Source: Psilocybe cubensis
Taxonomy: Eukaryota
Assembly (NCBI GenBank): GCA_017499595.2
Contig: CM039001.1
Location: forward strand, 620,001-684,000
Direction: 5' to 3'
DNA: 64,000 nt
Shown: positions 38,247 to 59,277 of the stretch, one piece after another
Layout of the letters: the number at the start of each line of letters is the position of its first letter
Numbering within the stretch: the first letter of the stretch is position 1
The notes under the pieces: model-generated
Seen by the model: the letters and a program-made list of their open reading frames with translations, nothing else
Databases searched by the model: none
Told to the model about the DNA's origin: nothing
Position numbers and translations under genes: made by a program

Positions 38247-40918
38247 ATGGGGGCCTCACTCTCCGACGAGGCGTACGACGCCCTTGGGGCAGAAACTAGG
38301 GGTCATTATCTTGTTGGGATGGATCCCTGTGGTTTTATGGAAACTTTCCTACCTTGGAACTCGAATACACCCCTTTTCTACACGGAACGATGCCCAGAAC
38401 CAACCAGAATGCAATCTCTGACATCTGTGCCACCAACACAGGCGCAACAAAAGGAAAGCCACATGTATGGTAAATTTGTAAATATTTTCATACTTGTCTT
38501 TATTATGCGTCAGCTAACTGAAATCGCTGTTTTGTTGATGTAGGTTAGTGCCCTTGACAGTTGGGTTACAGATACAGACACCAAACAGAAACTCAGATTT
38601 GGACACAATGAACGTAGATGTCTCTACATATTGGGAAGATGATTTTACAGTTACCAGTTCATGCACATTCTCTCTTCAGCAAACCCATGAAGTGTTCAAG
38701 AGCGATATATCTCATGACGCTTTTGCCCACCATCTCGACGAAGGCCCCGAAATCGTTGAGATTATCGACAAAGAGAAACTTAGTCCTGTTGCTTCCTCAC
38801 CTGCCACCGGTGACTGTAATTCGGATTTGGTTGGCAATGTGGGGACATCACCGCTTTCCACTGATTCTAATGCGTCTGCTAAGCTCGACGTTGAAACACG
38901 CCAACAGTCCGCGAAACGGAGGCAACCATTTCAGAAAGCCTTCTAAAACCGGTCGAAACACAAACTCAAATCGGAAATCATATTCGCGGTCAGATCGCTG
39001 CATACGCCGGCGTTGCCTTGTCTATGGCATTTAGGACCCACTTTTTCTCGATGCTAATTCTAGGCCAGTATGCACGGTTTATACGCTGGGATCGACGTGG
39101 GGCCATTGTTACGAGGAGGTTTGATTACACTGTCAACCCTCACATCGTGTTCGAATTCTATCTCCGCTTTGGCCAACTCACCCCCCGACAGAGGGGATTT
39201 GACACTAATGTAGAACCTCTGAAGGCGGGTCTTCCTCAACGCGTCGCAAATGCCTTCAATGCATATTATCACTTGTCATGGTACCAGGGTGCCAAATACA
39301 GTCATAAATTAGATCCCTCAAATTGCATTTCTGCCTCGGATATGCTTTTCTTCCGTATTCGGATTGAGGATCGCACTCAGGGTCGCGTCGATAGCTTTAT
39401 TATCCCAGCCCCTGCCTACAAACACTCGTACGTCATTCCGTTTGCTCGTGCTTCCAGGCGATGCTTGGCGTATTTTGATGACCCCAACGCGCCAAAAATG
39501 TGTTTTCTCAAAGATTCCTGGCAAGAAGTCTCTCTACGTTCTGCTCCGGAGGCAGATATTTATCGGCGTCTTCAATCCAAAAATGTCCCAAATATAGCTT
39601 CCATGCGTCTCGGAGATGATGTTGTTGATCTCGAGACAGAGACACAGAAATGGTTCTATCTTTTATCTCACAGTGGTCGATACAAACATCTCGGGGCCAT
39701 GGTTTGCCATCGTCTTGTGATGGACACCGTTGCTCGTGATCTATCAACGTTTACTTGGTGCAAAGTCCTCCTCAAGTGTCTTGCTGATGCAATCGATGGT
39801 GTGTGCGTTGTTAATTACCATTATAACTCCTATTAGTGACCATTCATCAGCTTCCCAGGCAGCGTATAAAGCTAAAGTGCTGCATCGGGATATCAGCGCC
39901 GGCAATATCATGATAACTGTGGATGAGAAGACTCACGAATTACGCGGCATTCTTATCGACTGGGACATGTGCCTTCTGTTGAAACAACGAAACGTTGGCG
40001 TTAATCGCACTGCAAGAACTGTAAGCGTCTCTTTGACTATTTTTCTGTATTTCCTGAAAATGAGAAATAGGGCACGTGGGCATTCATTTCCGCCCGGCTT
40101 TTGAAGAGTGCAAAGTCGTCAATACCTGTCATTCACTCACTTTCGGACGACATGGAGTCTGTTTTCTGGGTCTTAGTCTATCAGATCTTTTGATATACCC
40201 GTCATGACACAAAAGATGCCGAACTTTATCGACTCTTAAACAGTCTCTTTAACGACGCTGCCACATCTGACAATACGTGGTAGGAGGAAAGGCCAAGTCG
40301 TGGATATTAAGCAGTTGTCGGAATGACATGGTCAGTAGCGATCTCACCAAATTTGCGAAACCCGAACTGCCAGAAGTCCTGCACATACTCGGTTCTGTCT
40401 TCTACGCCCCTTACGCTCTTTTAGCCAAGCAAGCTAAGAAACAAGAGCGCTAACTCTCCAAGTCAACAAAAAATGCCACCCCTACCTACCACGACGAAGA
40501 ATCCAATTCGAGCAGTGATGAAATCGACGAAATTCCTGTCAAGGCTATGAAGAATTTGGATGACCCTGACGAGAAATGGCTGTCTAAATATCTTCGTAGA
40601 GCTGCAAGAACTATGGAGCCATTAGGTGTCACACCGACTGGTTTACTTTCGCCCGACCTAAATTCTCATCCTCCAAAAAACCCTGATGAATGGAGACCGG
40701 CACTCCCTGAACACTCTGGCGTGGATTTTTACCACATGTGGTTTGTAAAAAATCAGAATGACACCGAATTGGCGCAATCAAGACATGTCTCTAAAATCAC
40801 ATCTTCCATGTTCAATCGCATGAATGGTCTACCTTGCCGCTCCGGAAGCGCCAAGCGCCCTTTCGAAGACACGGAGGAGGATAATAAGGCGTTAAAAAAA
40901 CATCGCCCAGTTTCTTGA
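38247..40918 (+). pseudogene. Fungal-type protein kinase (FunK1/Pkinase_fungal) pseudogene
   Basis: Motifs RGQIAAY, RFIRWDR, FLKDSW, HRDISAGNI, IDWD and DDMESVFWV are present. Relative to the adjacent paralog it has a ~29-nt deletion near 38608, a frameshift near 38900-38950, an in-frame TGA at 40191, a 1-nt deletion near 40275 and a TAA near 40451. Confidence 0.85.
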
Positions 40919-41352
40919 CAATGTTACGTATCGAGGAGTCATTTTATCTTGCATATGTTAGCTTCTTATATTTCATCTTTAAATTCATCTTGCAATTGGG
41001 ATTTTGATTTGCTTCTGACCGTGCGGAGCGCTGGGGTCACGGTCGGGGATATTGAAGTAGACACTTTATAAATGAATTGTAAACGCTCTTAATTTGATTG
41101 CATTTATCATCGCATATGTACATTGTGTCCGGCAAAAAATTTGGAATGTAAAATGACAAGCAGATAGACCCGATGCAAAGTGACAAATGACATCTTCGGA
41201 AGTTGATCATGAAGAGGTGACTCCTGAGCGTGGGAACGAATAAATTTGGTATGCCTTCACGCACGCGGGACTATTAAAGTTGAACACAAACTATTGTCAT
41301 CATATATCATAGACCTCTGGTATTCCGACACTTTTACCAATTAGTGCATTCT

Positions 41353-44048
41353 ATGGGCCACCAAGTTGACGATGGAACGTATGATGCTCTTGGGCAGCTT
41401 TTGAAAGGCAAATATCTTGTTGGGATGATGCCAGAACGCTTTTTGGAGGAGTTCCTATCATGGAACGCAGATACACCACTGAACTACAAGGAGCAACAAC
41501 CAAGTGCAAACAGAGTACAATGCATCATATCAGAGTCATCAACGCACCAGCAGAATACAGAGGGCCGTACGTTTAGTAAACATGTAAGCATTTCCAGTGC
41601 AGATCTTATGTGTAGAGCTAACTGGTTTGGGTTGATAAATAGGTCTGCGCCCTTGATGGTTGGGTCACAGGTACCGATACAAAACAACAACTTAGATTTG
41701 GACATTTTACGCGTCCTGACGATGCCTGCGGTTCCATGAACGTTGAGATATCCACATACTGGGAAGAAGACTTTCCGAGCATCGCTTCCGGCTCCTGTAA
41801 CTTTGCTCTGCACCAGACTCATGGAGTGTTCAAGTCCGATATCTCACACGATGCATTCGCCCACCCATTTGATGAAGGCACTATGGCCGCTGAAGATTCT
41901 GAGTTTGTGGTCAGAAAAATCGAGATTTTCAGCTCTGGCGAAAGTAACGAAACACACGATGCAAGTATATATGGCAATGTGGTTTCTGCGAAGGAAAAGA
42001 AAGATGAGCAAATATCACAGGAAGATGCAGTACTCGATGGGTCACCGGTAGTCAAGCTCAAAAACGACCTTTCGAATTCTATCTCCAATATTGAAATAGA
42101 TACCGAGCCTGCAATTCGTACACGGGGACAGATTGCTGCATACGCTGGTGCTACCATGTCGATGGCCTTCAGGACCCACTTTTTCTCCATGATGATCCTT
42201 GGCCATTATGCACGATTCATACACTGGGATCGATCTGGTGCTGTTGTAACGAGCAGGTTTGATTACACCAAAAATCCTTACATCATCTTCGAATTTTACC
42301 TACGCTATGGCCAACTCACGCCTCGGCAGAGGGGGTTCGATACCAATGTGCAACCCATCAAAGATGGTTTACCCCCGCACGTCGCCAACGCATTCAATAA
42401 ATATCATCGCAAATCATGGTACGAAGGTGCAAAATTTGAACATAAAACCCACCCTTCCAATCACATTCCCATCTCGCAGACGCAATTTTTTCGCATCAAA
42501 ATTGAGGACCGGACCCAAGGCCGTGTTGAAACCTTCATTATTCCACCTCCCATCTATAAAAAGTCGTCGCTCATGCCATTTGGGCGAGCCTCCAGACGTT
42601 CTCTGGCATATCTCGATGACGCTGTCGCACCGAAGATGTGCTTCTTCAAGGATTCGTGGCATGATATCTCCGAGCGTAGTGCCCCAGAGGCAGATATCTA
42701 CCGACTTCTCCAGTCCAAAAACGTGCCAAATATCGCATCCATGCGTCTGGGGGACGACGTAGAAGGTTCGGAAACTAAAACGCAGAGATGGGTTTCCGCC
42801 TTCGCTCGTAGTGGTCAGCATAAACGTATCGGAACTATGGTTTGCCATCGCCTTATTATGGACACTGTTGCTCGAGACTTATCAACCTTCACCTGGTGCA
42901 AAGTTCTCCTTAAATGTCTCGCTGATGCAGTCGATGGTAAGTGTGCATTAGCTTTCTGCGATAAAAACACTACTTTAAACATTTGCCAGCTGCCCAGGAA
43001 GCATATAAAGTCGGTGTGTTACACCGGGATATAAGCGCAGGCAATATCATGATTACCATGGACGATAAGACACACGAATTGCGCGGCATCCTCATTGACT
43101 GGGATATGTGTCTTCTTCATAATCAACGAAACTCCAATATCAATCGTAAAGCAAGAACAGTAAGAATTTGGATGTTTCTTATATATATATATATTGTCTA
43201 ATAGATATTACTTGTAGGGAACTTGGGCATTCATGTCCGCCCGACTTCTGTCTAGCACAAACGCCTCGAAGCCTGTTATTCATTCCCTATCTGACGACAT
43301 GGAGAGCTTTTTCTGGGTCCTCTTTTATCAAGTCCTGCTATACACGCGTCACAGCAAATCAGGCGAAGAACTTGAACAGCTCCTGCAAAGTCTCTTCGAT
43401 GATGCAGCGAAAGGCGATAATGGGATGGTCGGGGGCCAAGTGAAGATGTGGGCTTTGCAAATTGCCTGTAACCCTAGCTCGATCAGGCGCTTCACAAAGT
43501 TTGATAGAGTTGAGCTGGAAAAGGTTCTCCACGAGCTCGGATATCTGTTTAACTCCCCTTACGTACTTTCTGAGCAAGAAGACGAAGAACGAAAAGCCCA
43601 AAACTCCAAGGTTAAGGTTGTCGAAACCGAGGTCAGCAAACCTGCGTTCTCGGATGATGAGGATGACCCCGACGACGACGATGATGATGATGCCGAAGAT
43701 GATGAAGATTCCAATAAAGACGACGAAGACGACAACGACAACGAAAGTGAGGAAGAATCAGACGATCCTGATGAAGAAAATCTTTCTCTACAAGGGCATG
43801 TCGGAAATCCCAGCCCTATACGGAAGGATCTAAATGATCCAAACGAAAAGTTGTTGTCCGATTATCTGCGCCAAATTGCTCACTCGATGGAGCCTTGGGG
43901 TGTCACTCCAGCTGGTCTACTTTCGCCCAAGCAAAATTCTCGCCCTCCGAAAAATCCTGCCAGATGGAGGCGTGCACTCCCAAAACACCATGAAGCGGAC
44001 TTCTACCCCATGCGTCTTGCGACGGATGCAAATGTAAAGAGTGGGTAG
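41353..44048 (+). CDS. Fungal-type protein kinase (FunK1/Pkinase_fungal)
   Basis: RGQIAAY, ARFIHWDRSG, FFKDSW, HRDISAGNI, IDWD, RT|GTWAFMSARLL, DDMESFFWV; three introns; acidic C-terminal tract. Confidence 0.9.
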
Positions 44049-45581: not shown

Positions 45582-47643
45582 ATGCCGATAAGCAAGAAGA
45601 TGGTGTTCTCGGAGGACGAGGAGTCGGGGTCTGACAGTGGTGAGTGATGTGCTATTCCTGACACTGCCAACGCCCGTGGACGAGTGGGTGGCACTACCCA
45701 ATTTATATGCGCATGGGAATTTCTTCTTTTTGATGATGTGCTAACGTTAACTTTTTAATACTCGCCTCTTCCACCCTTTGGACCTGTTTGTCTTTGGTTC
45801 CATTCGATTCTTCGTGACCGCTCTTCCGTGCTTCCCTTCCTCCCTGCACTGACACCGCAATGCCTCCTCGTACTCGTCGCTCTGCCGCCGTCGCTGCTGC
45901 TGCCTTGGTCGCAGACATGCAGATGGAGTCTGAACCAGAAGAAGAAGAAGAAGAAGAAGACGAAGAAGAGGAGGAGGAGCAAGTCGACATCGAGAATGAC
46001 GACGAGGACGGAGAAGGCGAAGAAGGAGATGAAGACGAAGATGCCGAGAGTGAAGAGCAGGACTCTGTATGTTTCGTCTTTGTGGGCTCCCTGGATGGTG
46101 CCTTCTTGATGATTGACTGTCATGGTTGTTCTTACACAGGATGCTGAAGAGGAGGAAGAGGAAGAAGAAGAAGAGCCAGTAGTACCCCAGCCTCGGCTAA
46201 AGATCACACTTAAGCTCCCCGCGAACAACACCTCCTCCAACAGTGGTGGGACCGCCACACCTGACGACCAGGAAAATGACTATGTATTCACGCGTACCCC
46301 CAGGCGGCGCGCTAAAAGTACGCATATAACCATGTATTCCTATTACACGCACGAAGCTGACTGGAAATCGTGGATGCAGCTAAAGTCATACAAGATATCG
46401 ACGTCGAATCCGAGGACCCAACGTCCAACTCCGACTCGGAAGAGAAAGAACAGTCTGCGCCTTCGCGCTCCACGGGCACCCCCTCAGGCACTGCTGGCCC
46501 CAGTACAAAGCCGATGACGACGCGCCAGGCTGTCTTGGCGAGCGTAGTTGACCCCTCCCATGTTTCTTTGAGTAAGTGTGGCCGGATGGACTCATTCGAT
46601 CGTGTCCGAACCTCTAATCATTTGTGTACTCTACAGATGAAGGTACCAGGAGCAAGAAACAGCCACTCAACGAGACAGAACTCGCTCTGCGAAGGGAGGA
46701 GACTGCCAGAAAGCGGAAGAATCTCAGCGAGAAGAAGTTGCAGGATGAAAAGGTTCGCGTTTATTTCTTGCATTCCTCTGTCATTCCATCCATACGTGTC
46801 TACACGCGCATCAATATCTCCTCTGTGAAAGAATACGACTAACCCATCTACATCCTACAGGCAGAAACTATCAACCGTCTGCTCAAAAAGCAATCGCGGC
46901 CCAAAAATAAACGCAACAACACGGGCGACGATCGCTCACCAATGCCCGGCTCTGGCGCGCGCACGCCCAAAGTCAAAACAGCCGCCGCCGCCGCATCAAA
47001 GAATGGAAACGGAGAGGATGGAGAGGATGCCGAGGGTGATGAAGATGAGGAGGATGCGATGGAAATCGTGCCGGAGCCTGTGGAAGAGGTCAAGCCCGTC
47101 ATGTATCGCTGGGTATCGACGATCCGCGCGTTGCCCCCGGTGGAGCCTATTACCGCTGCACCTGCAAACGGTGGAGTCACCGCGGATGGTGAAGGTGGGA
47201 TGAAACATGAGGATGTAGATATGCAGGTGGATAAAGAAGCAGATGGGAAGCAGATGGTTGTGAAGAAGGAGGTGCAAGTGCCTATCATGCGAATCACGTT
47301 CTCCATCCCTGAGCTCGCCCTCGCTCGTCATCCACCGCCACCCACTCAACCCAATACCGTGCTTCCAACCTCTGAAACTATCAACCCTTCAAACTCTACC
47401 GCAATGCAAGTCGACGACGACAACAGCGTCAGCAAACCCTCTGAAGAAGAGCTGCAACGGCAAGCACGCGAAAAAGAGCGGGCGGAGAAAGAAGCAAGGG
47501 CGCGTGGGCCGGGTGTGTGCGCTGTGGACGGGTGTGGACTGCCGCGCAAGTACCGGCACCCGGGGGACTGGACGGTCGGCGCTTGTGGAATGGGGCATTT
47601 GAAAGAAGTTGGGAGGCTGGTGGAGAGGAGGGCGGTTGTTTGA
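45582..47643 (+). CDS. IES2: INO80 complex subunit Ies2/INO80B (PAPA-1 domain)
   Basis: MTTRQ motif, ALRREETARKRKNLSEKKLQDEK|AETINRLLKKQ, YRWVS and a C-terminal Cys/His motif. The start is uncertain: 45582 (spliced) or 45860. Confidence 0.82.
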
Positions 47644-48333: not shown

Positions 48334-49721
48334 ATGGACTGCACCATATGCCTTGACACTATCGAGAACGGGAAAGCGCGCTGTTTGCCTTGTGGTACGT
48401 CTACCTCACTTGCGCATATACCTACGTTTCTCTGCCCTGCGAAAGGAGTTTTTTTATATACGCTTATTTTTTACCTTTTTTGAACTTCTATAGGTCATAT
48501 TAACTGCGAAGATTGTGTTCTGTCGCTTTGGAAAAAGAACAAGACGTTTTGGGGCTTTCGATGTCCAGAGTGTCGAGAGGAGGTTCGGGGACCACGTACG
48601 TTTTTTGCCTTTGTATTATGTATTTATTGTGTATTCATTGACTACATTGGATAATATGACCTCTAGAATTGTCCGCGGAGAGTATACGTAAAGTGTACTT
48701 ACACCCTAAAATGGACCCGTCAGCCCCTTCCTCCTCGTCAAGGACCACCCACGACAGTAACAATTCTATAACAGAGTCTCAAATTAATCTCAAACTCGCC
48801 ACCGCCCATAAAGAACGCGATGCCGCGCTAGAGCAGCTTGCCTTCCTGCGTGACCAGCAGGCGTACCTTGATAATGCGCTGAAGCAGGCACTCGACAATC
48901 TCGATGCGCAGATGCACTACTACCAGGCGGAGCTCGCGTGTCTGCGACAGGTGGAGGCGAGGAGACGCGTTGAGGAGGAGGGGAGGCGGCGGGAGGTTGA
49001 GGAGGTGCTGGGAGATTTGAGGTGTGTGGTTAGGGTTCTGCAAGATGAGAATGCGGTGCTCAAGAATGATATTGGGGTGCTTCTTCGGGAGCAGGAGAAG
49101 CAGGAGAAAGAGCAGATTGGGAATAGGGACGCGAAGAGTGTGAAAGGAGAGGTGCCTTTTTCGAATAAGAAAGCTGAAGATGATGGTATACCTGAGGGTG
49201 CTAGTGCTTGTCACTCTGGAGGATCCTGCTGTATCGAACGTGATTTTGTGGACGGGGCCCCAGATACATCGACAACTGTCGTAGCTGTTTGTCAGAGTCC
49301 AAACACCACCAACACTGTCACAAGCGACTCTGACACACAACTCCTGGTAACCAACTCTGCGTTGGATTCCGACTCAGGATTATCTGCTATTATTATCGGT
49401 ACTTTTTCTGATGCAGATGCAACCGCTACCAATCTAAATGTCGACGTCACTCTCACTAATGACAACATCACCATCGCTTCCGCTCCAAGGATCAATACCA
49501 CCACCTCCTCCTCCTCTACTGCACAGAGAGCATTAAGGAGGGGTACCGATATCCGCTTCACAGGGTTCTCGTACCCCAAGAAGCACGTAGTCCCAGACTG
49601 CGTTCCTGAACGCAACGGGGTCCACCGATTCCTTGGGACGGGGAGTAATACCCACTACACGCGCTTCAGCTGCAGTTACTGCGGCTTTATTTGCAAAGAG
49701 CGCAAGCCGCAATACAGTTAA
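48334..49721 (+). CDS. RING-HC + coiled-coil protein with C-terminal Cys/His module (paralog 1)
   Basis: Spliced MDCTICLDTIENGKARCLPC|GHINCEDC...RCPECR, then the 48669-49721 ORF. Confidence 0.88.
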
Positions 49722-50326
49722 TTTAAAGAGAGAAAGGTGTGTGTGTTTGCTTGTTGTTCTCGTGAGCGTAATTCTGACATTTGTTTTGTTGCTGGAAGAA
49801 CAAGAACATTGTTTGCGTTGTCCTGCTTTTAAATTTTATGTATTTGTTTGTGAAGTGTTTAATGTACGAGTATGTTGCCTGCCCTGGAGGCGATTGACTA
49901 GCAGAAGATATATTGTGAGTTATTTTTCCCATTTTTTTCTTCATTTCTCGAGAATTTGCGATTGATGGCCTTTGCAGAAAGGAATAATGATGTATTGATT
50001 TTTTTTATTCAAGGGAATTTTCAAGTTGTTGCAGAAGCCTATGGCATCGTCCGATTCTAAGCTCGGTATATCGAATAATTGTGTTCCCTAGTACGTAGTA
50101 GTGCGTCGTCTCAGGCCTCATGCGTATCAAAATAACCCTGCGACTCTATCTATCTGAAATGGAAGTCCTATCACCTCTTGACGTAAGAATAGTCATGGGG
50201 TGGATTATACATATATAAGTAAGAATATGCAAGAAATGCACGTGTAGGGATCTCAGCGCTTCTTCTGCACTGCCCTTCACTATCTCTCAAGCATCATTTC
50301 GATTGCAGTGCTGCGTTGAACACAGT

Positions 50327-51267
50327 ATGGACTGTAGCGTGTGTCTCGATGCCATTGAAGATGGAGATGGTCGTTGCCTGCCCTGTGGTATGCTCACGAC
50401 TGTGCGTTTCGGCTCAGCTGATCATAGACCTACATGATACGTATCGTTCAGGCCATATCTTTTGTAAATGCTGCCTGCAATCACATCGAAATCATAATGC
50501 AACACTGTCTGGTGGGTTCCTGTGTCCGCAATGTCGCTCTGAAATTGTTCCAAAAGGTACGTCCTTGATTTCACCCATGCGCTCTCGGTTCTACAGTTCC
50601 AACTATGTTGAATATTATCATACACATAGGAGATTCTGATGATACCATCAGAAAGGTTTTCTTGAGCCTTGAGTCAAACTCCGAGCAGTCCATAGACATA
50701 ACGGAGATCGAGCAATTGAAGGCACTTCTGAAAAAAACACAGCAGGAAAGGGATGATGCTCGATTAAACCTTAACACTGTTGGAAATCAGCACTCCATAG
50801 ACACAACGGAGATCGAGCATTTGAAGGCACTTCTGGAAAAAACACAGCAGGAAAGGGATGATGCTCGATTAAACCTCAACACTGTTCGCAATCAGCACTC
50901 CGGTCCATGCCATGAAGAAATTGATCGCCTTCAGACGCTTTTGAACAGAATTAGGAATAAAAGGGACGTACTTCATGCACAATTAAAAAAAGCGCTCGTG
51001 GACAACCAGACTATGACACATGGCCATGAAAAACTACAAGCATTAGGTAGGACGCAGGTAAAAGAGCGCGACGATCAAATAACTGCCTTGAAACGAGCGG
51101 AGAAAGCGTCCCGGGCTATGATCCACGTGCTGGAAGAAGAGAACAGAGTACAGCAGAAGGAGATCGTCTCCTTATCTAAGTATGCAAATAGGACGATAAA
51201 TACTTTAGAGAAACAAAACATGCGGCTGCAGGAGCTCCTCGCCAGGGCGAAGCGAGTTAAAGCCTAG
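50327..51267 (+). CDS. RING-HC + coiled-coil protein (paralog 2)
   Basis: MDCSVCLDAIEDGDGRCLPC|GHIFCKCC...LCPQCR|GDSDDTIRKVFL, then coiled coil. Confidence 0.85.
50689..50898 (+). repeat. 105-bp tandem duplication inside the coiled coil of RING paralog 2
   Basis: SIDITEIEQLKALLKKTQQERDDARLNLNTVGNQH / SIDTTEIEHLKALLEKTQQERDDARLNLNTVRNQH. Confidence 0.95.
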
Positions 51268-51759
51268 TGCTATGGGGAGAAAAGCAATCAGTACTAGTCT
51301 GGGTACCCATGAAGGATCAAACAATCATTCTCTGTCAAAGCATAAGCCACAAAGCTCGAAGTCGAATGCCAGCGCTACTGTCCTCCCTTCCGTATGAATA
51401 CAGTATTCAATGGATACCAAGGTCCCTCATTGATGCTAAATGGCTATGATCATCAGTGACGGTCCAGCTAGTATTATAGGCGGCCACCGGCCTCTCAGTA
51501 AATCCGAGGGCTGAAATATATATACAAATATTAGTCCTAGCTGTAGAGTATCATTATTTCTCTGAATATCGTTTCTTCATTCGGTTCTCGAAGGATCGAG
51601 CAAAAGCCCTTAAAAGCTCAATTTCGTCCGTGTTCATGGCACGTGTATTTTTAGTACCATTCCCACGAACCGAAGTAACAAAAGGCCATCGTCTCGCTCC
51701 CATCTCTCACTACGCCGTCTGGTGGGAGGTAAGTACATTGCCTCAGCTCCGCGTGCGCG

Positions 51760-53104
51760 ATGGACTGCACAATATGTCTTGACATCATGGACCAAACTGG
51801 CTATTGTCTGCCTTGCGGTATGCCCGCTTTCAATTTGCCTCGCTTTCCTGGGAGAGAGCTGTAGTTAACAATCGGCTATTGTCATTACAGGCCATATATT
51901 CTGCCAACGCTGTCTAGAGGAACATTGGGAACTCAATTCTACAGTCAACCGAACTCTGTTATGTCCTACCTGTCGTAGTGAAGTCCATAGCCCCAGTACG
52001 TCGCGATAATCTAAGATATATACTGCGTCCTCTTCCATGTCGTATTAAATAATCGACCTTTCTGCATTTCATTTGTTTAACGGAAAACTCTTTCTAAACC
52101 TATCAGACATCAAGTACTGATTGAATTTAACGCCAGGGGCGTCTGTGGATTGTATTAGGAAAGTATTCATTAGTTCAACCCAATCGCCTTCGTCGGGAGA
52201 AGAAATGCGCCAACTTCGTGAGACGTTGGCCAAGACATGCGACGAGAAGGATGCAATCTTTCGGGACCTGCTCTCCACACGCGATTCCCAAGCCCAAGTA
52301 GAACAACTGCTCAGGGATGCCTTGGACGACGCGGAACTCAAGGAAAGGCAAATGCAAGATCTTAAACATCAATTACAACAAGCTCAAGAGGCGCTCAACC
52401 GTGCTTCCTTAGATTCAAAGACAAGCGACGCTCTCTCACAGCTAGAGATCAAGAATCTGCAAGAGGAAAATGAACTACAGAAGGCCGACATCGAACTACT
52501 TGAAGATGAAAATGAAGGCCTCAAGAGCGTGATTGAAGACTATGAGAAAGAGATTAAAGTCCAGCAGAATCAGATCGGTATCCTTTACATGAAAGCAACT
52601 GCATCAGAGAGGGATATCGAGGCGCTGCAAGCAACGATCCAAATCAAGAAAGAGTTCGACACCAGAGCAGTTCAAGATAGTTTCAGTGATGGACGAGATA
52701 GCTATGATACCCGTTCGGGGCAACATCCAATCATCAACCCTCCTGGCACATCTGCTTCGCCTACTCCCACAACTACTTCAAGAAGCTCCTCAGCGACAGC
52801 TAAATCTGAAGATAGCACAAGCGCTCACGGTTCAGTTTCAAATTCCCAGGATGGACTCTCACCTCCCGCTGAGTCATCTTCTGGTACGAGAACGTTGAGA
52901 AGAGGAGATGCGATTCAGTACGAAGGGTTTTCCTATCCCAAAGAACATGCGGTCCCTGATTGCGTCCCGGCGCGCAAGGGACGTCACCAATTTTCTGGTA
53001 CTGGAAGTAACGCCTATTATACACACTTCAGCTGCAAACATTGCCACTTCAAATGCAAGGAACCCAAACCAAAGTCCAAGAAAGGTGTTGAACTACTTCG
53101 CTGA
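51760..53104 (+). CDS. RING-HC + coiled-coil protein with C-terminal Cys/His module (paralog 3)
   Basis: MDCTICLDIMDQTGYCLPC|GHIFCQRC...LCPTCR, then SVDCIRKVFI, coiled coil, S/T linker and the Cys/His tail. Confidence 0.88.
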
Positions 53105-53579
53105 ACCATTACGCTTGCTAACGCCTAAATATTTTAACATTAGAAACCGGTATTGCCCCATCAGCAATGTAGCTGTTTAACTGCGGATGTGACGTAGGCA
53201 CGGATCTTCCTCGAGGAGTGAACAGCCCTGTGCATCGAGGTATATGTATCTATCCTTATATACTATAGTGTCAAGCCAAAACACTTTTTTAAAAGTCCTC
53301 GATTTCCCCTTTCATATGATTACATATCATTTTTACCCATTGTTCTGCTTTTCGAACAACCATGAGGTTGACTTGAGGCCGTGTTGGCATCATTATAGTC
53401 ATGATGTTACCCACAACTTCGTTGCTCGATCTGACGGGGTGTGCCGGTACAGTGGGAAAGCTCATTGACTCGATTCCTTTATCTGGGCCCTTGAAATACG
53501 AAGTATGAGTTGCCACTCATTCAAATTGCCACCATCGTTGTCTGGATATTCCAACTGCTCTTTGTCCTTCGTATCTATC

Positions 53580-54702
53580 ATGCAATGTACTATATGTCTA
53601 GAGACCATACAAGACGCGGGTCTCTGCTTACCCTGCGGTACGTGTTTGAAAGTTGATCGATTCCTCTATTGACCACCCCTTTACCGATAGGCCATATCTT
53701 TTGTGAATCCTGTGTTAAGAGTCACACAGATAATAATCAAAATTATGAAGGAAAAATCCTATGCCCGACTTGCCGCAGTCAAACCTTTCCAAGTATGTAA
53801 ATGGTTGCGTTTAAGGTGGTTCCACTTTAATATTGAATTTTTTTAGTATTGTCCGCAGAAAGCATTAGACAAGTGTACCTCAACTCATCAACCCAATCTG
53901 CTTCCTACTCAGAAAATATTGAGAGCCTTAAAAAACTCCTGGAGGTAACCATCGGGGAGAAGGATACTGCACTAGTCGAGCTGGCCACCTTCCGGGAGCG
54001 CGAAGCAACGTGGAGTAGACTCCTCAAGGAAGCAATCAATCGCAACGAAAGGAAGAACAACGCTACTTTAGATCTCAAATTACAAATCGATGTTCTACAG
54101 CGTAAATGTGAGGAATATGCTTCTCGGGATGCGGTTGCACAGCGTGTTGTTAAAAACCTGCAAGCGGTGAATGCATCGCAAGCTAAAAAAATCGAGCAGC
54201 TCAATCAGGAGTCGGATACCTTGAAAAATCTGATGAAGGACATTCAAGACGAGAATGAGAAGCGGAAGGAAGAACTGGAGGATCTTGTCACCGCTCAGTC
54301 AAGGGTAATTGAGAGGATGAAAAGGGACGTTGAGAAATCACAGACAAGTCCACAAAGTATGAAGCCAAACTCGGGTTCCAGAACTGGTCACAAAGTTCAG
54401 ATATCCAGAAATATTGGACAAGTACCTCGTGGACCACGTATATCCGGTGATATTTTTCCTGCAGGAAGCTCTGGCAACTCAGGAGCAGGTAAGCATATGG
54501 TTTAATACCTATGGGAGATATCCAGCCTAACCAAACACTAGACTTGCAAACGATACCGGAATTCAAGAAACGTGATGGGTGGCTGATGATTCCAGACGAA
54601 GTGGAAGCACAAGGCCGTTCTTGGCTGTTAGAGCACTGGTTGACAACACAAGACGACGCTTTGCCCGAGAAAGGAGAACCCATACAAGTGGAACAGGTCT
54701 GA
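53580..54702 (+). CDS. RING-HC + coiled-coil protein (paralog 4)
   Basis: MQCTICLETIQDAGLCLPC|GHIFCESC...LCPTCR, then SAESIRQVYL and coiled coil. A phase-compatible third intron (~54489-54541) adds DLQTIPEFKKRDGW...EQV*; unspliced, the ORF stops at 54505. Confidence 0.82.
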
Positions 54703-55326
54703 GATGAAGGGTGTCAAAGTTATTCAGCCATATCTGCCATATCATAGTCATTTAGTTTGCATGTATATACATAAACAACAAAAGCGTTTGCACACTTTGT
54801 AGAAATGGGGTCAATTTGAGAGATTAAGTGCTCCTAGAACGTACAGGCGAAACAATTGTTGCAGAGTTTACCGGATGTCTAGATCTGTGAGTTAGAGTGA
54901 CCTTGCACAGAAGTATCCATTTAAAGCAACAGATCCCTGACAGTGATTGCGTGGTGGGGTTAGAGAGCGGAGGTTGGAAAAGAGTTCAAAGGCGTTTCAG
55001 CCTCTTAGCCCAGTGGAACGGTTAGATTTGAAGGAAAGAATCCAAAGGGATGCGCACGGGCCATAATGCTGTAAGAATGAAAAGATGTTGATATCATGTG
55101 ATCACTCTCAAAGGTCGTCGGAAAAAAATAACTATACCTGCCCTGCTTTGTTCTTTGCTTCGAAAATCTTAGGGTGCTCAAAAATGAGTCCAAATGGTGA
55201 TAAAAACGATATAAAGGCGCTTCATTTATTCAAACTTCGATATTTGCATTTCAGTACATAAAGCAAACTCTCGATTGGTGACCATTGGTGACAATCAATT
55301 CTCGCCTATATCCAACTTCGACGCTT

Positions 55327-55729
55327 CTACGATTGGCCGTAACAATAGGCCTGGTTGTTCTGAAGTTGAATCTGTCCAGGATGGAAAAAGTCTTCCTTGC
55401 AACAACCAGAGGACTGTACACCAGGAGGGCAAACTTGATTGGGTTGAGATGCCAAAGGGACACCTGTTAAAGGGGGAAGGGCAAGTAAGCATATATTTGT
55501 GAACAGTGGAACATGAGTAAAAAGTTAGAATGCTACACTTACACCCTAACCCCGTTCCAGGTACTACCTGGGGCCATGACTGCCATGTCATATAGGTGCA
55601 GCACGATGGAATGAAATTGAGATTGCATGTAATGCGCTTCTCAAGCTCCGGCAACGGGTTGGCACTCGCAAACGACGCGAGGAGGCCAAGAGCGACGAAG
55701 ATAGTAGACTTTGCTATGCTGGTGCGCAT
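55327..55729 (-). CDS. Small secreted 8-Cys hydrophobin-like protein
   Basis: Removing intron 55464-55542 gives MRTSIAKSTIFVALGLLASFASANPLPELEKRITCNLNFIPSCCTYMTWQSWPQVVPGTGLGCVPLASQPNQVCPPGVQSSGCCKEDFFHPGQIQLQNNQAYCYGQS*. It has a signal peptide and a C-CC-C-C-CC-C pattern. Confidence 0.85.
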
Positions 55730-56789
55730 GTCGATCGGATGCTTGTTATCTGTTCCTATCTTGGTTGGGAGCTGACGGATAGATACCATTACAACCCAGT
55801 TTAAATATCTTTTTTGCAAGTTACGTAGTTACTTTTCCGCCTTGAACTAGATGGGGATCCCCGGTCAATGACACAGGGACCTCATACAGATTTCACATCG
55901 CTTGTCTGTTGACATTGTTTTCGTTGATATTTCATTTAGACGCCGAGATTGTGTATCAGTATTTGCATTTTATTTTTAGAACAACCAGGCACCTGCTGCT
56001 AGATACTTTATTCTTTGACCACGGAATTGAAAAGGAATGAATCCTGTGCAAATTGTGCGCTAGCAACATCATGCAACATTGTAATATGGATTTGGCTATG
56101 TCCACCTTTTCCGGTGAGAAAATTTGCATAATCATTAACATTAAAAATGTCAAATTCCGCAAAATTTCCGAAAGAATGAATTGTTGGGCGTCTACTATAT
56201 CCTTCTCCGAAACGGTTCCACAACTTCAACCAAGCGGGATGTCCTAAACTGTGTTATATATTTTCTGTCGCTAACGGAGGCCATTGAATGCGACATCAGA
56301 GCGGGAAACGGGGTATTTTAAACTAGTTGCAGGCGGACAGAACTCCGTAGAGTGATTTTGTGTGGACATTAGCAAATTCGAAGCGGTAAAAGGTAAAACA
56401 TGATAGTAAGACGGGAAGGAAATTATCTCCGATGTCATTGTTTCATCAAAACCCACGGTGATGTATATCAACCAAAGACAAGAAAGGGCAAAGGTCAAGG
56501 AGATCAGATAGACTACAAAGCTCTCGTTAAGAGTGTTCACTCAGAATTATAAGCTGGGGACCAAAGGTGCAGGTATACTGTATGAGTCATGAGAATTCAG
56601 TGTGTGATGCGCTGAACCCGTCGCATCCACTCGTCAATTATGTAAGGCACTGGCAAATTGCGTGGGAAGGGAATGTGTTTACAATACAAACTAGACAAAG
56701 AACGAAATGCGCTGATGCTCGCACTAATTTCCTCTGTCTTCTGACAGAATGCTAGCATTTCTGGTAGATGATTTTTAGGTGCCGTCTTC

Positions 56790-59277
56790 CTACTGCGTTT
56801 GTACCATTTCCATGACGAGAGGCAATTTTGCCTTGTCACTAGATCCATGGATGGTGGGTGCGGCTATTCCTGTCATTTTCCAGATGATCTCCTTTTCCGA
56901 AGGGGTGAATTTGAATGAAGTTATTAAAGATGATAGCACAGATTCTGTGTAGCCAGGCCGATGGATTAACAGTAGTGTGAAACATTGACCGAAAATGCTT
57001 ACTCATTTCCAGCTGCGAGAACTTGAATCCACTGTCAATGAGTAATTCTTTCTTTAGTGATTAATTTGAATCGAGAAGAGTATATGCTCACATGCATGAC
57101 CTCCCTCCACCAATAAATGTCATTCTGATAGAGCAGCATGTCAGTCAGAGCGCCACAAAGGCTGTAGACGAGAAATAAAAAGGCCTACAGGTTTGAGTAT
57201 ATTCCGGGTAGATGAGCTTGAGTGACTGTTTCTGGGAGCGGATTCAGCCAACGCTCTGGTTTCCATTCATTTGCGTCCGGGCCCCACAGGTCTGGGTTGC
57301 GGTTACAAGCCATAATCCCGATTATTATATCAGTGTTTTCCGGGACTAGGAGCTCTGTTAACTCTTCTCCAGTCGTTGCCTTAATTGGCTTGGACAGCGA
57401 GAGCACAACGTCTTTCCGAGTGGTTCTTTGGAGGCGCGTTACAGGGGGGAAACTAATTCTCCAATTAATAATTTGAATTATGTTAAAATGATGCTGACGT
57501 ACAGCCTGAGCGTCTCGCGGCATATGGCGTCTAGGTAAGGCAACGCGACGAGCACGTCGTAAGACAAATCATTCCCATGGGCCATTTTTGCCTCGGCTAA
57601 TTCAAGACGAAGTCTTTCTTGTACGTCCTGATTTATAGAAAGCAGATGCAAGATTCTAGCCAACCCTGCTGAAGTGGTATCGGTACCAGCAAAAATCAAA
57701 GTTCTGAAATGGCAAATCTTGTAGACCAAAGTAAAGTGAAGGACGGCATCACTCACGCTATCTGCCCTATAATCTCGTCTTCTGGTAGCTTATCCTCGTT
57801 TGATGCATTAAGATTAGCTCTCACTAAAATTTAATTAGTGTCAATAGCAACCAATTAGGAGAGGTCCTCACTGAGTATGCTAAGAATGTCCTTCCCTTGG
57901 CCTATCTGTTTTGTAACAAGTTCGTCCCCTGCATAAAGGGCTTTCTTCTTGGATTCATATACTTCGAGGGATGTGCTGTAGGTCAAGTCCACAATGTCCC
58001 GAAAACGGTGTAAATCCTTCAGTGGGAGGATGTCAAGTATGAATCGGCGAAATCTGGGAGTTCCAATCCGGACAATGGTTGGCAGGAGATACGTGCGAGA
58101 AAACCGAAACTTTATCAAAGCAGGGCTACAAACGTAGATTACGTTAAAATCTTTTAGTATAATACTCGTAATGCAAAAATACCTACCCAAGATCCTTTAT
58201 GGCTTGTGTGAATGGATGCGGTATACCGTCTGCCGTTAAAGGGTCGAAAGAATAAGCTAAGCCACTCTGACCCAGTAGCTCCATTGCTGTTCGAGTCAAC
58301 CAATGCATGATATCAACCTTCAAAATATTGTAAGACTAGAAATAGCAAAATGTCTGTTTTATATACCTCTTGCGGACCACTCTGTACTTTACTTTTCAAA
58401 GTATTGCAAAGCCTATTAACCACAAGAGAAAAGATTGGAACTTTGATTTTTTGATCAGTGACTTCCTTGCTGTGCAACAGATTATGACAAAAATACAAAC
58501 CCATATCTCGCATGTGAGCTATCGAAAACACAGGGTTCAACATTTTTCTTTGCTTCCGGTGGTGTTCGCCTGCCTCAAAGATGCGTGAGAAGGGGATGAA
58601 TCTTTAAGAATTATTAGGCAAAACACGTACCGTTCGTACTCAGGAGCCCATTTCCGAACATTAACTTTCTCCCTCTGGGAATATATCAGCGGCTGCAAAG
58701 TGAATTGCGCTCAGATACTAAATTCCATACTCACTCGATGACTCCTGTGCCTTCTTCAAAAATGTGTTGATCCTATAAGACAAAATAGAGTTAGCTTGTG
58801 TTAGAAAGTCAGTAAATTCAACGACCTTGGTGAGAATTTGAGTAAGGGCCTTGGGGTCGAATATGAAAAGCTGATTTTCCTAAGATACTGGTGTCAGATC
58901 TGACGGGTCGTTCAAGAAGAGCGCCCGAACGTACGCCAAGCAATGCCTTAACCTTGACTACAGTCCCATCTTTTCAAAGACGTTAGACAAAGTCTCGACT
59001 GACGCACAAATGAAGAACGCACATTGTTCCATTTCTGAATAAAACTCCCATGCATTGGGATTGAAGGCTTCCCTGAAAGTACCTATCAAACACCTCGTCA
59101 GACAGTAGTAAATGAAATGGATTGTTTGTTACAATTACCTTTGAAGAACGATTTCGACGGGGGTCCCGGAACAACGTTGAGCCCTGCATTTGCCACAATC
59201 CGACGGAGCTGTTTCAAGCAAAAACGTATAAATAGCACGATACAGACGGTTTGTGCAGCAAGTAATAGCTTGAACAT
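56790..59277 (-). CDS. Cytochrome P450 (CYP5150-like)
   Basis: VPGPPSKSF, LIFAGTDTTS, CRETLRL, WKPERWL, MTFIGGGRSC|IGFKFSQLEM; many short exons. Confidence 0.92.

Follow-up and report, generated by a model that had tools for sequence, protein, structure and literature searches.

The window considered here, that is, the whole 64,000-nucleotide stretch of DNA analysed, comes from Psilocybe cubensis (NCBI GenBank assembly GCA_017499595.2, contig CM039001.1, positions 620,001 to 684,000 of the forward strand). Four tandem genes for proteins with a RING finger and a coiled coil, paralogs 1 to 4, span positions 48334-54800, and paralogs 1 and 3 end in a module of about 60 residues. This C-terminal domain is transcribed (by the spliced joints in contigs of runs X1 and X2), is under selection, and is tied to a complete RING-HC domain.

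The tandem RING genes and their C-terminal module

Paralog 1 is built, in order, of a RING-HC domain, a coiled coil, a linker rich in Ser and Thr (S/T) and the module; translation of 49527-49721 (+) gives 64 residues and the stop. The initial annotation had reported that paralogs 1 and 3 share the module while their coiled coils and S/T linkers barely align, and both observations hold. Identity is 40/61 residues and 118/183 bases in the module, against 18 residues in the best gapless 61-residue window of the upstream parts of the open reading frames (ORFs), for which BLASTP gives 22.6% over 265 columns. A tblastn-type genome search with the paralog 1 module recovers paralog 3 at E 4.2e-24. The range originally assigned to the paralog 3 segment, 52889-53104, yields the peptide as quoted, but its last 20 bases fall in an intron, and the coding sequence runs on to 53172. 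Synonymous sites of the two modules are saturated (pS 0.94) and pN is low (0.20), which excludes recent gene conversion, raised at the outset as a possible source of the likeness, and indicates strong purifying selection on a domain already described as selected. Of the 10 pairs that five genome copies of the module form, 8 are likewise saturated at synonymous sites.

GT-AG introns are skipped in contigs of X1 and X2 and retained in those of X3 and X4; X1 and X2 are judged to be RNA from these joints, no run being on record as RNA. Both paralog 1 coding introns are skipped in X1 and X2 contigs that continue through the module, and RING exons and module lie on one contig for paralog 1 (one X1 and one X2 contig) and for paralog 3 (one X1 contig). 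Three joints in X1 and X2 support paralog 3, including a 59-nucleotide GT-AG intron, 53085-53143, directly after the module. The first 3' untranslated region (UTR) intron of paralog 1 occupies the equivalent position, which in paralog 3 is coding. The second lies about 190 bases past the stop and could expose the message to nonsense-mediated decay.

Paralogs 2 and 4 carry no module in either of two genome searches. The paralog 2 exons are predictions, with no spliced joint listed for its introns. An extra A in its A-run at 50984, present in X1 and X2 contigs and absent from X3 and X4, would shift the frame and is possibly a broken allele of another strain; about 35 codons of its coiled coil are duplicated in tandem (50742-50876), which breaks the assemblies. 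Paralog 4 has one or more further 3' exons from 54542. In X1 it carries 34 extra bases at 54571-54572, in its 3' part, and several substitutions in the RING exons, and between strains it varies more than paralogs 1 and 3.

All eight C3HC4 RING ligands are present in each of the four paralogs, with hydrophobic residues flanking the first Cys pair and the Pro and Arg of C-P-x-C-R. E2-binding residues and an Arg after the last Cys are features of RING-HC ligases. The relatives P0010, P0011 and P0014 score above the Pfam cut-off for PF00097. By this sequence pattern the host proteins would be RING-HC E3 ubiquitin ligases.

Features of the RING cluster, in window coordinates
Feature	Position	Strand	Structure or basis
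Paralog 1 gene	48334..49721	+	exons 48334-48394, 48494-48595, 48667-49721; open spliced frame, 405 aa
Paralog 1 C-terminal module, 61 aa core	49527..49709	+	translation, alignment, predicted fold
Paralog 1 putative zinc ligands	Cys25 49599, His33 49623, Cys49 49671, Cys52 49680		proposed
Paralog 1 module G-S-N loop	49641-49649		
Paralog 1 fifth Cys, Cys56	49692		
Paralog 1 3' UTR introns	49737-49798, 49915-49977	+	joints in X1 and X2, sequence
Paralog 2	50327..51267	+	RING-HC and coiled coil, 267 aa, no module; exons 50327-50387, 50452-50556, 50630-51267
Paralog 3 gene	51760..53172	+	exons 51760-51817, 51891-51995, 52137-53084, 53144-53172; 379 aa
Paralog 3 C-terminal module	52889..53071	+	translation and genome search
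Paralog 4	53580..54488	+	RING-HC and coiled coil; exons 53580-53637, 53691-53792, 53847-54488; joints, translation

Distribution and evolution of the family

Two genome searches returned the same seven copies of the module, each with RING exons upstream. A phmmer search of 1.84 billion representative proteins gave 23 matches, 19 of them with the module; the other four (P0008, P0019, P0020 and P0025) were repeat-driven and were dropped. Profile searches gave 30, 32 and 1 matches. The phmmer search, with its single query sequence, was the only exhaustive one, the profile searches having scored about 8000 word-sharing candidates or 52, so that remote relatives may be missed. Together with one cluster member the searches yield 40 proteins, of which 36 have the motif complete and 4 are truncated within it. 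Organisms are named for 17, from 11 species of Psilocybe, Galerina, Gymnopilus, Flammula, Pholiota, Phlegmacium, Coprinopsis and Sphagnurus; two of these organisms were checked as Agaricales, and the others we take to belong there as well. Among the matches found, and on sequence evidence, the family is restricted to Agaricales. The sharing first seen between paralogs 1 and 3 is real but not exclusive to them: the module is the ancestral end of a family found in at least eight mushroom genera. Five short matches in prokaryote and viral contigs lack the motif (HMM E 0.009 or worse), and phage records contain no match to the module.

In 35 of 36 proteins, at most 35 residues separate the module from the C-terminus. 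A RING part or post-RING motif is visible in 18 of 37, many of the others being single-exon metagenome calls, and the models P0012, P0021, P0042 and P0045 are too short for their architecture to be judged. Three metagenome loci were retrieved. L019 combines the module with RING exons whose introns sit at the same positions, L021 has the end of a RING and a module that is frameshifted, and the L020 sequence covers the RING but stops short of the module. No other intact architecture carrying the module came out of the phmmer and profile searches. Models P0039 and P0041, in which a longer downstream region is joined to the module, and P0040 all stop inside the motif, which is whole at the genomic locus L006; they are read as gene-model errors and were rejected as other architectures. 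P0043 is frame-broken. The P. cubensis-labelled proteins P0039 and P0005 match other loci of the genome, L006 and L004, respectively. The Pfam family PF27241 is listed for P0014 only and is missing from four other full-length RING-module proteins (P0010, P0011, P0013 and P0022), so it is unlikely to be the module. A literature search by locus tags and by RING-ligase topic, limited to titles and without supplements, found no publication about the domain; the supplements of two bioRxiv papers might include these genes in their sets of regulated RING genes.

The RING tree and the module tree split the family into the same two groups, one with C-x7-H (Psilocybe) and one with C-x6-H (all genera), with support of 97 and 100; the alignments are short, and the trees are unrooted with weak inner branches. 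Because paralogs 2 and 4 fall within the module-bearing x7 group, their sequences suggest that they most likely lost the module. Of 66 pairs, 49 show higher conservation in the module than in the RING (53% against 43%).

L017 (G000:C1:2704218-2705520, minus) is a recent duplicate of a copy on C4, with 1175/1253 bases identical (94%); it has a 72-base internal duplication and, relative to its C4 sister, a 4-base loss by which the frame is lost before the module. L015 (G000:C12:1142600-1149500) holds two genes of the C-x6-H subgroup in tandem. In the second, the C12b copy, the RING is without its last Cys pair; the public models P0039 and P0041 join this second gene to a downstream gene, cutting the module. 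An additional RING exon lies at L015:9066, and four more related RING exons, with no module match, lie on C7 (G000:C7:688851-789208). As far as these sequences indicate, the pattern is one of birth-and-death turnover around a conserved two-ended design of RING and module.

In the window, a fungal protein kinase and a cytochrome P450 lie near the RING cluster in intron-rich fungal DNA. Upstream, 39730-44048 holds one or more fungal-type protein kinase genes (PF17667), apparently in tandem, and the P450 (PF00067) lies downstream at 57185-58190 (-). A small secreted Cys-rich ORF at 55295-55819 (-) looks hydrophobin-like by eye, with no Pfam match on the unspliced ORF. An acidic protein at 45860-47643, ending in a Cys/His motif, resembles the INO80 subunit Ies2; its two unspliced ORFs have no Pfam match.

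Motif, predicted fold and nearest known domains

In alignments of 23 and 34 members, Pro17, Val22, Cys25, His33, Gly39, Asn41, Cys49, Cys52 and Glu58 are invariant. The motif initially written as C-x7-H-x15-C-x2-C-x3-C keeps its first four ligands, but 5 of 36 proteins have Val in place of the fifth Cys (two of the five belong to one 90% cluster), which makes a putative four-ligand zinc site, C-x6/7-H-x15-C-x2-C, likely; Cys56 is probably structural and not a ligand. The Cys49-Cys52 spacing is 2 in 34 of 36 and 4 in the other two, and P0042 lacks Cys25. In the proposed GTGSN signature G-[ST]-N is fixed while the first two letters are not, positions 36-38 being variable. The description of the module as basic is borne out by a net charge of +1 to +8 (mean +4.0, 36 proteins). 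Basic or aromatic residues are conserved at positions 1, 4, 11, 14, 43, 46 and 47 in 31-40 of 40, as counted with a pattern that forces the ligand columns.

That the module is a discrete domain agrees with two confident structure predictions. Model 1 has strands at 33-35, 44-49 and 55-59, with equivalents in model 2, forming a three-stranded beta meander with a C-terminal hairpin. Foldseek against PDB and BFVD gave nothing at E 0.001; the top BFVD matches are small uncharacterised phage proteins with about 30 residues matched. The nearest known domains are type-2 zinc ribbons, namely the NrdR N-terminal domain (7P37, 9FZF), the TFIIS C-terminal domain (7UI9_S), Rpb9 (1QYP), RNA polymerase I A12.2 (7OBA_I, 4C2M) and ZPR1 (2QKD), and the label "Zn-ribbon-like" is supported as far as weak structural matches go. 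Like these ribbons the module has a CxxC knuckle in the turn of its C-terminal hairpin (Cys49 and Cys52, both invariant). It has no sequence match to them, adds a conserved N-terminal arm, and sits on a RING-coiled-coil protein. Because its first knuckle is C-x6-H or C-x7-H and not CxxC, the module is best described as a variant type-2 zinc ribbon and not a canonical member. It probably binds zinc. The catalytic ribbons of TFIIS and A12.2 have an acidic Asp-Glu hairpin tip; the short hairpin of the module is tipped by G-[ST]-N. NrdR has two CxxC pairs and a DNA-binding RRRR motif (PMC9110341), whereas the module has one CxxC, no RRRR, and on strand 44-49 a single conserved Lys/Arg (34/40).

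The initial statement that the module belongs to no named family stands, nothing confident being found in Pfam, NCBIfam or PHROGs. Of the three outcomes named at the outset as refutations, none came about. Single module sequences matched no Pfam family, and 23 members matched four (best E 0.0077, at most three members each). PHROGs gave two weak families, NCBIfam none, and PDB sequences best E values of 0.58 and 0.62. In the ESM Atlas the best feature score was 0.76, with no named cluster, and structure matches had TM 0.33-0.41. The structural matches listed include no GRF, NZF, PBZ or BIR structure and none of CHCC type, the fold of the NDUFS6 zinc finger, which does not exclude such folds. 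Two zinc fingers were compared and rejected by sequence. The module resembles zf-GRF (PF06839) in an Asn eight residues ahead of the third ligand, but lacks the C-x-[CH] first knuckle and the G-R-x-F motif; profile comparison with the three GRF fingers of the genome gave 0.1% probability, and its Pfam model matches none of 23 members. The zf-CHCC finger (PF10276) generally has a similar C-H-C-C ligand order and spacing, but its Pfam model matches 0/23 members and a zf-CHCC genome search misses the module. The C-H..G-N..CxxC fingers of dinoflagellate retroelements may be similar as well; no such protein turned up in searches that were not aimed at them.

In layout (RING, coiled coil, C-terminal recognition element) the host proteins are analogous to TRIM, TRAIP and RFWD3, an analogy of order only: they have no SPRY or WD40 domain, Pfam scans find no B-box, and the coiled coil follows the RING directly. 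They resemble RING-HC (C3HC4, PF00097) ligases, including the expanded mushroom families (10.1101/349894, in part), in their full RING and in tandem and dispersed duplicates; the C-terminal module is not a Pfam family and is not mentioned in the available part of that paper.

A candidate targeting domain

On balance, we favour the view that the module is a one-zinc ribbon variant serving as the C-terminal targeting end of gilled-mushroom RING-HC ligases, where its most likely task is to select the substrate of the ligase. The domain of about 60 residues would bind one zinc through Cys25, His33, Cys49 and Cys52 and would fold as a type-2 ribbon variant, preceded by an arm of about 24 residues at its N-terminus. 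By established RING biology the N-terminal RING would recruit an E2 and transfer ubiquitin, and the layout suggests that the coiled coil may dimerise the ligase and present two modules on flexible linkers, the poorly conserved S/T/P-rich linker giving reach while the module docks the ligase on its target. A dimer with two modules would suit a repeating or two-site ligand. If the module does target the ligase, a nucleic acid or nucleic-acid-bound complex has somewhat less than an even chance of being the ligand, narrowly ahead of a protein motif. Nucleic acid is put first because the conserved surface (Arg1, Lys/Arg4, aromatic 11/14/43, G-[ST]-N and Lys/Arg46) best fits a phosphate-bearing polyanion. 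The choice draws on surface chemistry and ribbon precedent: NrdR binds the DNA backbone through arginines of paired ribbons (PMC9110341).

The main competitor keeps the fold and the ligase and has the module bind a protein instead, such as a substrate degron, an adaptor or a phosphorylated motif, for example on products of the expanded fungal kinases; we regard it as possible yet clearly the weaker account. The Gly-rich loop and Arg would suit a phosphopeptide equally, SH3/KOW chains are among the structural look-alikes of the module, in type-2 ribbons the face of the sheet is the counterpart of the SH3 peptide-binding face (PMC5906684, in part), and the F-box, RING and BTB expansions of mushrooms have been read as E3 target-specificity factors (10.1101/349894, in part). 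Nothing direct speaks against it, but strong conservation across species and paralogs implies a ligand that does not change, and a polyanion backbone accounts for this no less well. The need for a highly conserved ligand also suits ubiquitin, which an NZF- or UBZ-like finger might bind in order to recruit the ligase to ubiquitylated sites or to aid chain extension, and zinc fingers of RING ligases often bind ubiquitin. Beyond that analogy, 23 members gave no Pfam NZF or UBZ match at E up to 10, the Thr-Phe signature of NZF is absent, and the surface is basic and aromatic, which makes this proposal very improbable. A complex prediction of the module with P. cubensis ubiquitin and zinc, in which the alignment was unused, left the module fold itself uncertain and is evidence neither way.

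It is also unlikely that the module has a separate fold without homology to zinc ribbons, using three to five Cys/His in another geometry, or is an element of self-association or auto-inhibition that would pack against the RING or another copy of itself. High Z values are rare for small domains, a CxxC turn that links two strands and is joined by a third antiparallel strand is the ribbon pattern, and Cys56 is replaced by Val in five otherwise intact members. An artefact, be it recent gene conversion, a transposon remnant or a non-coding repeat, has nothing found in its favour and is refuted by synonymous saturation and by spliced contigs that place the module in frame with the RING; its occurrence in 11 named species is a further point against it, and the chance left to it is negligible.

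A more far-reaching version of the targeting view, which we consider doubtful, would make these proteins a nucleic-acid-sensing ligase family of the mushrooms' own. An undescribed zinc-ribbon sensor on a TRIM-like layout would read foreign or damaged RNA or DNA (of mycoviruses or transposons), with turnover by duplication, domain loss and frameshift, and module-less paralogs might modulate it through shared coiled coils. RING, F-box and BTB genes of mushrooms are expanded, F-box genes often by tandem duplication, and developmentally regulated (10.1101/349894, with further context in PMC10282164 and its preprint, each in part), so a developmental role is as plausible as a defensive one.

In mushroom-forming fungi the RING ligases are an expanded group credited with a part in the development of fruiting bodies. 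The structural novelty here is modest, an atypical C-H-C-C ribbon, and a new kind of system would follow only if the sensing role were true. It is important to emphasize that the module is a concrete, easily expressed, 60-residue candidate recognition domain, more conserved than the RING that accompanies it, and that it also occurs in Coprinopsis, a genus that includes a laboratory model. A new family model is warranted for it, and it may offer a direct handle on the targets of one RING ligase family.
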